Origin: Candidatus Hydrogenedentota bacterium
Lineage (GTDB): Bacteria > Hydrogenedentota > Hydrogenedentia > Hydrogenedentales > SLHB01
Assembly: GCA_034408725.1 (NCBI GenBank)
Contig: JAWXCN010000017.1
Coordinates: 1-17,215, forward strand
Direction: 5' to 3'
DNA: 17,215 nucleotides
Shown here: piece after piece, positions 11,428 through 14,794 of the stretch
How the letters are laid out: each line of letters opens with the position of its first letter
Numbering within the stretch: position 1 is the stretch's first letter
Program-made: the position numbers and the translations under genes
Notes under the pieces: model-generated
Database searches by the model: none
What the model was told of the DNA's origin: nothing
What the model saw: the letters and a program-made list of their open reading frames with translations, nothing else

Positions 11428-12006
11428 CTAGCCCTCGCTACCGCAACACACAACATTGACACCGGCGGATTCAAGGAACGGGATGTCGAAATCGTTCGCC
11501 TGATCGCCGAGTGAATCACAGGAAAGGTTGACAAAGTCGCCCGTGCCGAGACCACCGTTCACCGAATTCGTGACCAAAGGCTGAATATCGGTAATGAGAG
11601 AGCCGCACAGGCTTGCGGAATCAAGATTTGTCAGGCCGGCAAGCGGGGAAATCTCGAATACGTCGGTGCCGTCTAAATTCAGATTGAGGAGGTTGACCAG
11701 GTTCGCGACAGGCGAAATATCCGAAATCGGATTGCCGCTGAGGTCGAGGAAGGTCAGATTCGTCGCGACTTCAAGCCCGGTGAGATTGACGATGTTTATC
11801 GACCGCGCGTCCAACTGGCGGAGACGCAACATGTCCCCGCGCGTGAGGAAACCAAGCGGATGACCAAGCTCGTTACGAATTGCCGCTTCGAGCGCAGCGT
11901 CCGGGATGCTCACAATGGCTTGGTTCGACGGACACCCCGACCCGAGGCCTATGAGCCCGAGCAGTGCCAGTGCAGTTGCCAGTCTATTCATTCGCGTCAT
12001 TCCCAT
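11428..12006 (-). CDS. Internalin-like leucine-rich-repeat lipoprotein (192 aa)
   Basis: ATG 12006 after GGGGG. Lipobox LIGLGSG|CPS, internalin-type N-cap IPDAALEAAIR, and 22-aa LRRs such as NLTFLDLSGNPISDISPVANLV and NLLNLNLDGTDVFEISPLAGLT. Confidence 0.88.
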   Translation of the reverse strand: MGMTRMNRLATALALLGLIGLGSGCPSNQAIVSIPDAALEAAIRNELGHPLGFLTRGDMLRLRQLDARSINIVNLTGLEVATNLTFLDLSGNPISDISPVANLVNLLNLNLDGTDVFEISPLAGLTNLDSASLCGSLITDIQPLVTNSVNGGLGTGDFVNLSCDSLGDQANDFDIPFLESAGVNVVCCGSEG

Positions 12007-12103
12007 GATGCCCCCAGGGCTAGTTAGCATCAGCACCCCCCATCGTATCTTAGGGGCTGATAGATAATTCCGGTCCTAAAACGTGACTTCCTCAGTCGAA
12101 GGC

Positions 12104-12133
12104 ATTATGAAGCAGCTTGGTCCATATTGTCAA
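12104..12133 (-). promoter_or_regulatory. Sigma70-type promoter for the LRR/VWA lipoprotein operon
   Basis: Minus strand TTGACA (12133-12128), an 18-nt spacer, then CATAAT (12109-12104), with an A-rich tract upstream. It lies about 100 nt before ATG 12006. Confidence 0.65.
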
Positions 12134-12372
12134 TAATTTTCCTCTCCATTGCGAGCCGCTTCTGAAATTATACACCGAAAACTCCGCAATGTTAACCAGT
12201 CGCAATTGATTTTTCAAAATTTTAGGCGAAAAGGTGTTAGATTAAACTAATAATTATATAATTAATGATGTACATAGAATGTTCAAAAGGAAAAGTATAG
12301 ACTCCAACTTGCCTTGTAAAAGCTTGTCCCTACTGTATTTGTCACGACTACGAAAAGTCCGCCCCGCAGTTT

Positions 12373-12381
12373 TGCTATAAT
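12373..12381 (+). promoter_or_regulatory. Extended -10 promoter for the 12409 gene
   Basis: Perfect TGnTATAAT (TGCTATAAT) 27 nt before ATG 12409, followed by an AGGGGA Shine-Dalgarno-like sequence. Confidence 0.65.
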
Positions 12382-12408
12382 GGCATTGGCGTAAAGCAGG
12401 GGATTGCA

Positions 12409-12816
12409 ATGGATCAATCTACGTTCCCATTCATATTCATTGGATTGGTCATTATCGGTTCAATCTCCGCCATTGGAAGTCGGCTCGTTGCTGGTGGACG
12501 CGACAAGAAAAGAATCGCGGAGTACCTTGCGTCGCGTGGAAGCCACGCTCATTCCATCCGGTGGGCGCCGTTTTCCATCGGTTTTTTATCGGAACGGACG
12601 GCACGCTTCTATCAGGTCCAGTATGTGGATGTTGATGGGAACGAACATGACGCGACCAGCAAGACGAAAATGTTTTCAGGCGTGTACTGGACAGAGGACG
12701 AGAATACCCACCACGCGAGAATACTCCCAGTAGAACAGTCGCATGAAGAGTTGGCGCGTGAAAATGAGAGGCTGAGAGAGGAACTCGATCGGCTGAATAG
12801 CAATCGCCAACCGTGA
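12409..12816 (+). CDS. Small hypothetical membrane-anchored protein with a C-terminal coiled coil (135 aa)
   Basis: N-terminal hydrophobic helix FPFIFIGLVIIGSISAIGS, an aromatic-rich core (IRWAPF...YQVQYVD.DG...FSGVYWTED) and the tail EELARENERLREELDRL. Promoter and Shine-Dalgarno are present. Confidence 0.8.
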   Translation: MDQSTFPFIFIGLVIIGSISAIGSRLVAGGRDKKRIAEYLASRGSHAHSIRWAPFSIGFLSERTARFYQVQYVDVDGNEHDATSKTKMFSGVYWTEDENTHHARILPVEQSHEELARENERLREELDRLNSNRQP

Positions 12817-12830
12817 CCTTGACACAAGGA

Positions 12831-12863
12831 CGCGCCGCGAGCGACTGCTTATCTCACGGCGCG
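12831..12863 (-). terminator. GC-rich hairpin downstream of the 56-aa ORF (probable terminator)
   Basis: Minus-strand RNA CGCGCCGUGAG-N11-CUCGCGGCGCG forms an 11-bp stem with one G-U pair. That pair is a C-A mismatch on the plus strand, which favours minus polarity. It is followed by a weak UCCUUGUGU tail. Confidence 0.55.
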
Positions 12864-12882
12864 AAGAAAGTTTCAGGAATGT

Positions 12883-13053
12883 TTAGGATTCGAGGATCGT
12901 GCTGGGCTGGCATTTATCGTCTAGCCAGGTCAGCCCGGGGATATTGCCATTTTTGAATCCGAGCAAACCGACGATTGCGCTCGAAACGGTGCACAGAATG
13001 TCCTGCCAGACGTCAGCGCGCTTCGGGCTGGACACATGCTTGAGATGCTTCAT
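12883..13053 (-). CDS. Small 56-aa protein or peptide precursor with two Cys (not in the ORF track)
   Basis: AGGAGGT (13067-13061) sits 7 nt before ATG 13053, and the stop TAA is at 12885-12883. Translation: MKHLKHVSSPKRADVWQDILCTVSSAIVGLLGFKNGNIPGLTWLDDKCQPSTILES. An upstream promoter and downstream hairpin bracket it. Confidence 0.8.
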   Translation of the reverse strand: MKHLKHVSSPKRADVWQDILCTVSSAIVGLLGFKNGNIPGLTWLDDKCQPSTILES

Positions 13054-13110
13054 CAACTGAACCTCCTACGTCGTTCGATTTGACCGCGACAGGGTGCTGA
13101 AAAAGCGGCC

Positions 13111-13163
13111 AACTTGTCAATAGATTACCTAGGACTCGATAGCTTGTCAATAGTTTTCCTTGG
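13111..13163. repeat. Imperfect 23-bp direct repeat, period 30 nt
   Basis: AACTTGTCAATAGATTACCTAGG (13111-13133) versus AGCTTGTCAATAGTTTTCCTTGG (13141-13163), 19/23 identical. Confidence 0.8.
13122..13150 (-). promoter_or_regulatory. Sigma70-type promoter for the 56-aa ORF
   Basis: Minus strand TTGACA (13150-13145), a 17-nt spacer, then TAATCT (13127-13122, TAnnnT). Confidence 0.55.
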
Positions 13164-13207
13164 GCCCCTGTAGCATATCTACTCCAACGATCCTGTTTCG
13201 TCACGCC

Positions 13208-14794
13208 TCATACAACTTTGGCCGTCTTGTAAACTCGCGGATCGATGTTGTGCTTGCCACAACGCAGTCCCATGATGCGCTCGGTAATTCCAAGGGTTTC
13301 GGCGGCTTTCGCTTTGTTGCCGCGCGTATTCTTGAGGGCTTCGATGATCAACTCGCGTTCGAGCCGTTCTAATGCGCCATCAAGGGTTTCTTTCAGCACG
13401 GTGCCGCTGGCTTCCGCTGATTGCAGGGTGGGCGGAAGATGGTGCCCGTGGAGCACGTCGTCGGAGGTGAGCAGGATTGCGCGCTCAATGCAGTTTTCCA
13501 GTTCGCGGACGTTGCCCGGCCAATGGTAGCTGCAGAGCATGTCGATTGCCGGCGTCGAGATGCGGCGCACGTTTTTGTGGGTAGATTTGCTGTACTTCTC
13601 GACAAAGTAGTTCGCGAGGTCGAGTATGTCCGTGCGGCGTTCGCGCAGGGGAGGGATGTGAATGGGAAATACGTTGAGCCGGTAATAGAGGTCCTGGCGA
13701 AACGAGTTGTCGGTCATTGCGTTTTCGAGATCGCGGTTGGTCGCGGTGATGATGCGCACATCGACCTTGATGGTGTCCGTACCCCCGACGCGTTCGAACT
13801 CGCGTTCCTGAAGCACCCGCAGCAGACGGATTTGCATCATCGGCGCAAGATCGCCGATTTCATCGAGAAAGATCGTGCCGCCGTCGGCGAGTTCAAAGCG
13901 GCCCTTGCGCTGCGCAACCGCGCCGGTAAACGCGCCTTTTTCGTGGCCGAACAATTCACTCTCGATGACGGTTTCCGGCAAGGCCGCGCAGTTTACTTTG
14001 ACAAATGGTTTGGAGGCTCGGAGGCTGTTGTAATGAATGGCGCTGGCGACGAGTTCTTTGCCGACGCCGCTCTCACCGCGGATCAGAACTGTAGCGTCGC
14101 TTTTCGCGACCTGGGCGATGAGGTTGTACACCTGCTGCATGCCGCGGGAATTGCCGATGATGTTCGCGGGACGGAACCGATCCTTGAGTTCATCCTGCAA
14201 GCGGCGATTTTCCGCGATGAGGCGTTGGCGTTCTTCGATGGCTGACTGGCGCATCCGAACGGCCTGGGCGATCATCGACCCGATAATTGTCAGCAGCCGG
14301 AGGTCTTCGCTGAGGGACACCGAATCGCCAAACAACCGGTCCACGCTCAGCGCGCCGATGGTTTCCGCGCCAAGTTTAATGGGCACGCAGATGAACGAGA
14401 TGTTTTCCTTCTGCTGCTTGCGCGCCCCCGTGCGGTCGAGGAAGGTAGGCTCCTCGGAAATGCGCGGGATGACCGCCGCGCGCCCGGTTTGAATGACCTT
14501 GCCCGTAACCCCTTCACCCGGGCGGTAGCGTCCGCGTTCCTGCTGGCTTTGGGACAGGCCATGCGCGGTTTCGATGTAAATCTCTTCCGTCTCGCGATTT
14601 ACAAGGGTCAAAGTGCCGCGCACCATTCCGGTGTTGTCGGCGATGGACTGGAGCAGTGAGCCGACGACATCGCGGAGGTCGATGCTTTCGTCGAGGCGCT
14701 GGCTGATATCGAACAGGAGGGCGAGCTCGCCGACTTCCCGCCGTATTTTAGGTTCGGCGGATGCGCGAGAACTGGCTTGATGTGTAGCTTCCAT
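13208..14794 (-). CDS. Sigma54-dependent enhancer-binding activator, NifA-like architecture (GAF, AAA+, Fis-type HTH)
   Basis: GAF region ([10 protein letters not shown]...ISFICVPI...IGALSVDR), Walker [24 protein letters not shown], Walker [29 protein letters not shown] and [24 protein letters not shown]. Confidence 0.95.

Follow-up and report, generated by a model that had tools for sequence, protein, structure and literature searches.

We are nearly certain that a minus-strand open reading frame (ORF) of 56 codons, located in an apparently empty gap of the 17,215 nt stretch of DNA analysed here (hereafter the window), is a genuine gene with the family, transcription unit and synteny described below. 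Within what was searched, its product belongs to a small-protein family restricted to Candidatus Hydrogenedentota, which is a less striking picture than the secreted peptide proposed in a preliminary description of this DNA. We infer the localisation, the cysteine chemistry and the partner of the peptide; the reading that we prefer, at a probability of about 0.4, is that it forms a cytoplasmic helical hairpin whose accessory or regulatory function depends on thiol or metal chemistry and which is genetically tied to an envelope lipoprotein module and to the activator encoded beside it.

The literature on Hydrogenedentota, in the portions available, consists of genome-based predictions with almost no experimental biology. 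Here a single-copy, strongly constrained 56-residue protein, encoded by about three in four genomes of the phylum and largely missed by gene callers and family databases, offers three targets for initial expression studies and biochemistry of these bacteria: the peptide itself, its three invariant residues, and its promoter, in which the tandem box is unusual. Because its promoter is conserved and its place beside an envelope lipoprotein operon is fixed, the peptide is likely to be part of the core, lineage-specific physiology of the group.

The gene and its surroundings

The sequence was read directly, with the ATG at 13053-13051 and the TAA at 12885-12883 of the minus strand. A TTG triplet stands one codon 5′ of this ATG, and a start there would read MMKH.... 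The preliminary description had placed a complete minus-strand gene in this gap, preceded by a perfect Shine-Dalgarno sequence, and both hold: the translation is identical to the peptide as originally given, and the AGGAGGT is found at the expected spacing. In related loci GGAGG-like sites occur at the equivalent position, ahead of a start codon (ATG, GTG or TTG) and the K-H that comes after it. The features of the region are listed in Table 1.

The gene is flanked by convergent genes, a 135-aa plus-strand ORF on the one side and the activator gene on the other. The 135-aa ORF is accompanied by an AT-rich stretch (12001-12400, GC 0.41), and the two together constitute an insertion in the region 12037-12816, for which the nearest relative (G003) has no counterpart at the corresponding position. 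Family searches with this ORF gave nothing beyond weak PHROGs rows (E 0.002-0.01). Its product has a coiled-coil-like C-terminal tail.

Table 1. Coordinates of the peptide gene, its signals and its neighbours in the window.
Feature	Position	Strand	Remarks
7x BACON + VWA (DxSxS) + Ig-like lipoprotein, 1346 aa	4722..8762	-	
BACON + VWA lipoprotein, 868 aa	8795..11401	-	
Internalin-type LRR lipoprotein, 202 aa, lipobox ...GSGC-P	11428..12036	-	Usual downstream neighbour of the peptide gene
Putative promoter of the lipoprotein operon, TTGACA-N18-CATAAT	12104..12133	-	AAAATTA 5′; also in G003
135-aa ORF with one N-terminal hydrophobic segment	12409..12816	+	Separates the peptide gene from the LRR operon
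Hairpin 3′ of the stop, 11-bp GC-rich stem	12863-12831	-	T-run absent
56-aa ORF	12883..13053	-	MKH... N-terminal tail, predicted helix 15-33, turn, predicted helix 39-48, variable acidic/Pro tail
Shine-Dalgarno AGGAGGT	13067-13061	-	7 nt 5′ of the ATG of the peptide gene
Conserved box TAATCTATTGACAA (TAAWCTnTTKACAA)	13114..13127	-	-10 and, directly after it, a second -35-like TTGACA; 21 of 32 loci
Putative -10 hexamer TAATCT	13127-13122	-	17-nt spacer after the -35; TAAACT in most relatives
Putative -35 hexamer TTGACA	13150-13145	-	AAAACTA just 5′, extended -35-like
NifA-like sigma-54 activator (GAF + AAA+ + Fis HTH), 528 aa	13208..14794	-	Directly upstream of the peptide gene

Coding evidence and distribution

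Used as a query against 61 related genomes, the peptide matched open frames. In six pairwise comparisons the nucleotide changes fall mainly at third codon positions, and dN/dS, which had been proposed beforehand as a check and was expected to be below 1, is 0.04-0.18 in five of the six pairs, the synonymous sites of the sixth being saturated. A profile built from 26 orthologues (alignment A1) matched 102 of the 135 Candidatus Hydrogenedentota genomes, among them 74 of the 86 high-quality ones; two of the 102 (G005 and G015) are weak partial matches. This agrees with the suggestion in the preliminary description that similar short proteins occur in Hydrogenedentes-like genomes. The same description had suggested a search for paralogs conserving an MKH...PxxA segment and both cysteines, and none was found: the gene is present in one copy per matching genome, with the exception of G023, and there is no paralog in the window's own genome, where the weak matches on contig C142 (E 0.3-0.4) lie inside long ORFs and were rejected.

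A search of 1.84 billion representative proteins with the profile returned 173 matches at E≤0.001. Among the 150 matches listed, 140 are small proteins and 10 are proteins of more than 1000 aa with 4-19 partial stretches each. We take the latter to be spurious, since the two that were read (P0008 and P0110) are Ser/Thr-rich tandem repeats with a recurring C...GG..P spacing. A match in a Magnetococcales locus (L042) was likewise set aside as a chance VTWLDDKC similarity within a 314-aa protein, and the longer forms of the peptide in the database (76-104 aa) are gene-calling artefacts in which the normal [MVL]-K-H start lies inside. Where the source gives a name, members carry only the label 'hypothetical protein'. 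The close relatives with the gene are Candidatus Hydrogenedentota/Hydrogenedentes, two of them labelled otherwise by their depositors.

Conserved residues and predicted fold

Residue conservation was tabulated for 144 members, all small proteins that re-matched the profile and most of them drawn from the search of 1.84 billion proteins. The most constant positions are Cys21 (99%), Cys48 (98%), His3 (97%), Ala13 and Lys47 (95% each), Pro39 (92%), Pro10 (88%), the Gly-Gly pair (88% and 80%) and Gln17 (81%). A putative His/Cys/Cys site is deduced from this conservation alone. AlphaFold predicts a disordered or mobile N-terminus, a helix at 15-33, a turn from Gly36 to Pro39, a second helix at 39-48, and a loose tail, with a mean pLDDT of 70.6 from 26 sequences and 77.0 from 123 sequences; the helix, G-x-x-P turn and second helix of the preliminary description are thus also predicted here. 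Seven of the ten strongest covarying pairs between the two helices fall in one antiparallel register, compared to a background of 35%, with p about 0.02, a value to be read with the knowledge that the register was picked after the data had been seen. The Cys21-Cys48 pair falls in this register, which lends weak support to the earlier suggestion that the two cysteines are positioned to clamp a helical hairpin.

The N-terminal segment fits the preliminary description less well. Residues 1-13 had been taken for a cleavable leader, and conserved residues do occur there, but inspection by eye of alignment A1 and of the 144-member profile revealed no hydrophobic core, lipobox or twin-arginine motif before Cys21. 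Only six to eight mostly polar residues (A-x-x-W-Q-D-[IV]-[LIV]) join the basic tail to Cys21. Helix 1 contains charged residues in most members, and is therefore probably amphipathic rather than membrane-spanning. Nothing in our analyses supports cleavage of residues 1-13, or a secreted, membrane-active, signalling or filament-forming peptide.

Searches for known families and folds gave little. The window's peptide matched 0 families in Pfam (E≤0.01), NCBIfam (E≤1), PADLOC and PHROGs, and seven relatives compared with Pfam at E≤10 yielded a single row, Phage_Coat_A, at E 0.083 and under its cut-off. No metal-binding or redox family was matched in Pfam, NCBIfam or the PDB sequences, against which the best profile match has E 0.086 (CFAP36). 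Foldseek returned no match at E≤0.001, and in a wide VIA-align search the best Z was 4.5, with none at or above 5 and only generic hairpins among the hits. The best feature matches in the ESM Atlas (0.87-0.89, below the 0.9 mark) are unrelated phosphodiesterase-like clusters and were dismissed. Rfam gave no match at gathering score across the whole window and none at E≤1 in 12750-13250. Listings and abstract openings of the literature on the phylum together with small proteins, micropeptides, bacteriocins or RiPPs contained no paper on the peptide. No described family or system was matched, although the peptide may still be an ordinary small regulator.

Promoter and transcription unit

From the window sequence by itself, the regulatory signals of the gene are only suggestive. 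The preliminary description had reported a minus-strand unit bounded by a TTGACA-17-TAATCT promoter and a hairpin; both elements are present as described, but a consensus scanner called 0 promoters on either strand of 12300-13700 and 0 terminators at the hairpin, which is not followed by a run of T residues. The -35 hexamer has no mismatch and is separated by 17 nt from the -10, whose TAATCT by eye matches TATAAT at three of six positions. It is followed by an A and then by a second TTGACA at 13120-13115 of the minus strand.

Comparison with related loci strengthens the case considerably. A TTGACA-N16-18-TAA[AT]CT arrangement is found within 250 nt upstream in 23 of 32 related loci, with 0.005 loci expected from shuffles, and TT[GT]ACA directly follows it in 21 of those 23. 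The distance from the end of the -10 to the start codon varies from 50 to 132 nt across these loci, and in the window's genome the full arrangement occurs at the peptide locus only. To judge from its sequence, this would be a near-consensus sigma-70-type promoter, and the arrangement has been kept across the phylum.

The predicted folding energy of the 71-nt hairpin stretch is -25.5 kcal/mol (z = -2.9), a value equalled by 2 of 200 shuffles, and the hairpin at 12831..12863 may be a two-way terminator shared with the convergent plus-strand gene. Several relatives (e.g. L004, L005, L006, L011, L013, L019 and L022) have a GC-rich hairpin with a T-run directly 3′ of the stop, and since terminators follow the gene in many relatives we regard it as its own transcription unit. 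This assignment, already made in the preliminary description, is well supported by comparison through the recurrent promoter, the terminators of relatives, and the separate promoter of the LRR operon. A survey of public sequencing runs listed eight DNA runs and no RNA run for this sequence.

The 14-mer TAAWCTnTTKACAA is not peculiar to the peptide gene. It is present in a few copies per genome in 118 of the 135 Hydrogenedentota genomes, far above a reversed control, and a TAnnnT-type -10 stands about 17 nt after it at most of the 20 other sites read (L058-L077); it looks like a general, phylum-typical extended -35 element. The peptide promoter appears unusual in that the first half of the box doubles as the -10 of an upstream TTGACA. 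In the window, sites of the 14-mer class are seen at 13114-13127 and at 12127-12140, both on the minus strand.

Lipoprotein neighbours

Downstream of the peptide gene in the window are three lipoprotein genes (Table 1), and the signals of all three products end in G-C-P, as do those of the LRR orthologues of 21 other genomes. The 868-aa VWA protein has no match among PDB sequences. Neighbourhoods were compared in the 100 genomes that have a full-length peptide match. An LRR orthologue lies no more than 1.5 kb downstream of the peptide gene in 87 of them, at a median distance of 577 nt; in seven it is elsewhere, and in six, five of which are in genus g4, it is not listed. Ten of the 12 long loci compared retain the gene order peptide, LRR, VWA, BACON, with differing genes upstream, and the only neighbours conserved in the 12 are the LRR, VWA and BACON lipoproteins, plus the activator in some.

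The association is not invariable. In two genomes (G001 and G002) the peptide gene and the lipoprotein operon are on different contigs. These two are of the same genus as the window, and in both the peptide gene stands away from the activator and the lipoprotein operon and is followed by a gene (L029 9874-10374 in G001 and L027 9794-10303 in G002, both plus strand) for a protein of about 170 aa with a ribbon-helix-helix-like C-terminus. Lineages that do not encode the peptide (most of f3, g29 and g26) are also without a clear LRR orthologue; this joint absence is not independent evidence of a link, because one deletion would remove both neighbours. Complex prediction for the mature LRR lipoprotein (A3) with the peptide (A1) gave a score of 0.00 in two runs, in which the fold of the partner was itself uncertain, so that the result speaks neither for nor against an interaction.

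Possible roles of the peptide

The explanation that we prefer is that the peptide remains in the cytoplasm, a localisation suggested by its having no Sec, Tat or lipoprotein signal. There it would be abundantly made and would fold into an antiparallel helical hairpin, with Cys21 and Cys48 close to each other beside the N-terminal Met-Lys-His. Its accessory or regulatory function would depend on thiols or metal; it may sense redox state or metals, or serve as an adaptor for a larger protein. The conserved position of the gene, with the activator on one side and the lipoprotein operon on the other, suggests a part in modulating the expression or the assembly of the LRR/VWA/BACON envelope module.

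There are parallels to known small regulators. Sda, SinI, RicA (YmcA) and anti-sigma hairpins such as RsiG are small helical-hairpin regulators that bind a larger protein, and they share with the peptide a size of about 50-60 residues, two antiparallel helices (predicted for the peptide), a lack of signal peptide and a small transcription unit of their own. RicA, YmcA and RsiG are among the tied weak VIA-align rows, where the superposition of a generic hairpin reaches Z 3.9-4.0. The peptide is not related in sequence to Sda, SinI, RicA or RsiG, however, the Z values below 5 are tied with those of hundreds of unrelated hairpins, and the His3/Cys21/Cys48 pattern is absent from all four. Sensors of the CsoR/RcnR/FrmR type use an N-terminal residue together with Cys or His residues on helices to bind metal or formaldehyde, and the peptide resembles them in being predicted to be all-helical, with a conserved His3 and cysteines on its helices; FrmR is found at Z 3.9, tied with unrelated rows. 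The peptide differs from these sensors in having two helices and not three, no evident DNA-binding surface and no Pfam match.

The adjacency to lipoprotein genes (87 of 100 genomes) suits a role outside the cytoplasm at least as well as one within it. The peptide could leave the cell by a non-classical route and, as a disulfide-clamped hairpin, bind, cap or be displayed by the lipoprotein complex, perhaps by docking as a ligand on the concave face of the LRR protein or by placing its acidic tail on a VWA metal site. Besides the close spacing and the retained order of the LRR, VWA and BACON genes behind varying upstream genes, the lipoprotein signals on all three neighbours favour such a partnership, as does the joint absence of peptide and LRR gene from the lineages named above, albeit one deletion of neighbouring genes would be expected to produce the same pattern. 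The in-register cysteine pair would suit a disulfide, and disulfides are stable only when outside the cytoplasm. Genes for abundant structural subunits or precursors usually have a strong promoter and a terminator of their own and are followed by accessory genes, a layout that the peptide gene fits; the Braun lipoprotein (Lpp), an abundant small envelope protein that is helical and monocistronic with a strong promoter and terminator, is comparable in size, helicity, gene organisation and, for the peptide, a location beside envelope lipoprotein genes. Unlike Lpp, the peptide has neither signal peptide nor lipobox, the residues at -3 to -1 before Cys21 being D-[IV]-[LIV], and no Sec or Tat signal or clustered exporter provides another way out. 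The peptide is also kept under purifying conservation without the operon in five of the eight genomes of genus g4, is separated from it by contig in G001 and G002, and has beside it, in the window and in G003, an operon with a promoter of its own. On balance we consider export as a partner of the lipoproteins the main rival to the cytoplasmic reading, but the less likely of the two. The more specific proposal that a leaderless, very abundant, disulfide-clamped hairpin reaches the envelope and belongs, as small subunit or ligand, to a surface complex that is specific to the phylum and built from the LRR protein and the two BACON/VWA proteins is more doubtful still; if true, it would represent an envelope structure of a new kind and a new mode of export for a signal-less peptide.

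Small size, a strong promoter of its own, a conserved N-terminal segment and the Gly-Gly pair (88% and 80% of the 144 members) could also describe the precursor of a ribosomal natural product, a bacteriocin or a signal peptide, with a leader cut at P-x-x-A or at the G-G before Pro39, and two ORFs with a Peptidase_C39 domain are encoded elsewhere in the genome (contigs C98 and C88). Double-glycine-leader peptides, which are exported by ABC transporters with a C39 peptidase, are likewise small and have Gly-Gly after an amphipathic helix. In the peptide family, however, no transporter is linked, the C39 domains being on other contigs only, and in agreement with the preliminary description no modifying enzyme (radical SAM, LanM, YcaO, MNIO or the like) or transporter is found among the ORFs of the window; no protease is found there either, and none of these is conserved in the 12 long related loci. 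Twelve of the 144 members have N, Q or E instead of the first Gly, and the window's peptide has N, so that it reads N-G and not G-G. Gly36 and Pro39 are at the predicted turn, so structure would explain their conservation. The gene is single-copy and phylum-wide, and purifying selection extends over its full length, including a would-be core in which the residues after G-G are as conserved as the would-be leader, whereas the cores of natural-product precursors usually vary. A precursor is accordingly very improbable. Even less credence can be given to a cis-acting leader ORF or small RNA controlling the lipoprotein operon: the gene is on the same strand as the operon and upstream of it in most genomes, with a hairpin between them, but we exclude this reading because the amino acid sequence is itself under strong purifying selection, with invariant residues. 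Moreover, about 200-500 nt separate the peptide gene from the LRR gene, with the operon's own promoter in between in the window's genus, the peptide gene persists in genomes whose operon is missing or lies elsewhere, and there is no Rfam match.

The sigma-54 activator and genus g4

In the preferred reading, that of a cytoplasmic accessory or regulatory protein, the activator gene is a second point of reference. Its product scores 552 bits against TIGR01817, the NifA equivalog (cut-off 528.85), and we call it only NifA-like because no nifH was found above its cut-off in the window's 92%-complete genome. Automatic annotation would probably misname it as NifA. Orthologues are present in 118 of the 135 genomes as a single-copy core gene with 53-93% identity over the GAF domain, and in 20 of the 100 genomes, from families f1, f3, f5 and f10, the activator gene lies just upstream of the peptide gene.

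Against the preferred reading, the activator is also a core gene in genomes that have no peptide (e.g. G029, G032 and G038, and 14 of 14 in family f3), and outside g4 no sigma-54 promoter is found ahead of the peptide gene. The pattern TGG-N9-TGC occurs upstream of the peptide gene in one of 26 loci, and a general sigma-54 promoter for the gene was rejected, there being no consistent site in the window or in the 12 long loci.

Genus g4 is different in this respect. None of its eight genomes has the lipoprotein operon. Each of the four g4 loci examined (L049-L052, from G134, G007, G133 and G035) has a sigma-54-like TGGYRC-N5-TTG[CT] element some 70 nt before the start of the peptide gene, two of the four elements ending in TTGT and not TTGC, and the activator is directly upstream in three of the four loci. 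In L052, the sole g4 locus that is annotated, the peptide gene is followed by genes for an RnfB-like Fe-S protein and a 1500-aa pyruvate:ferredoxin oxidoreductase (PFOR).
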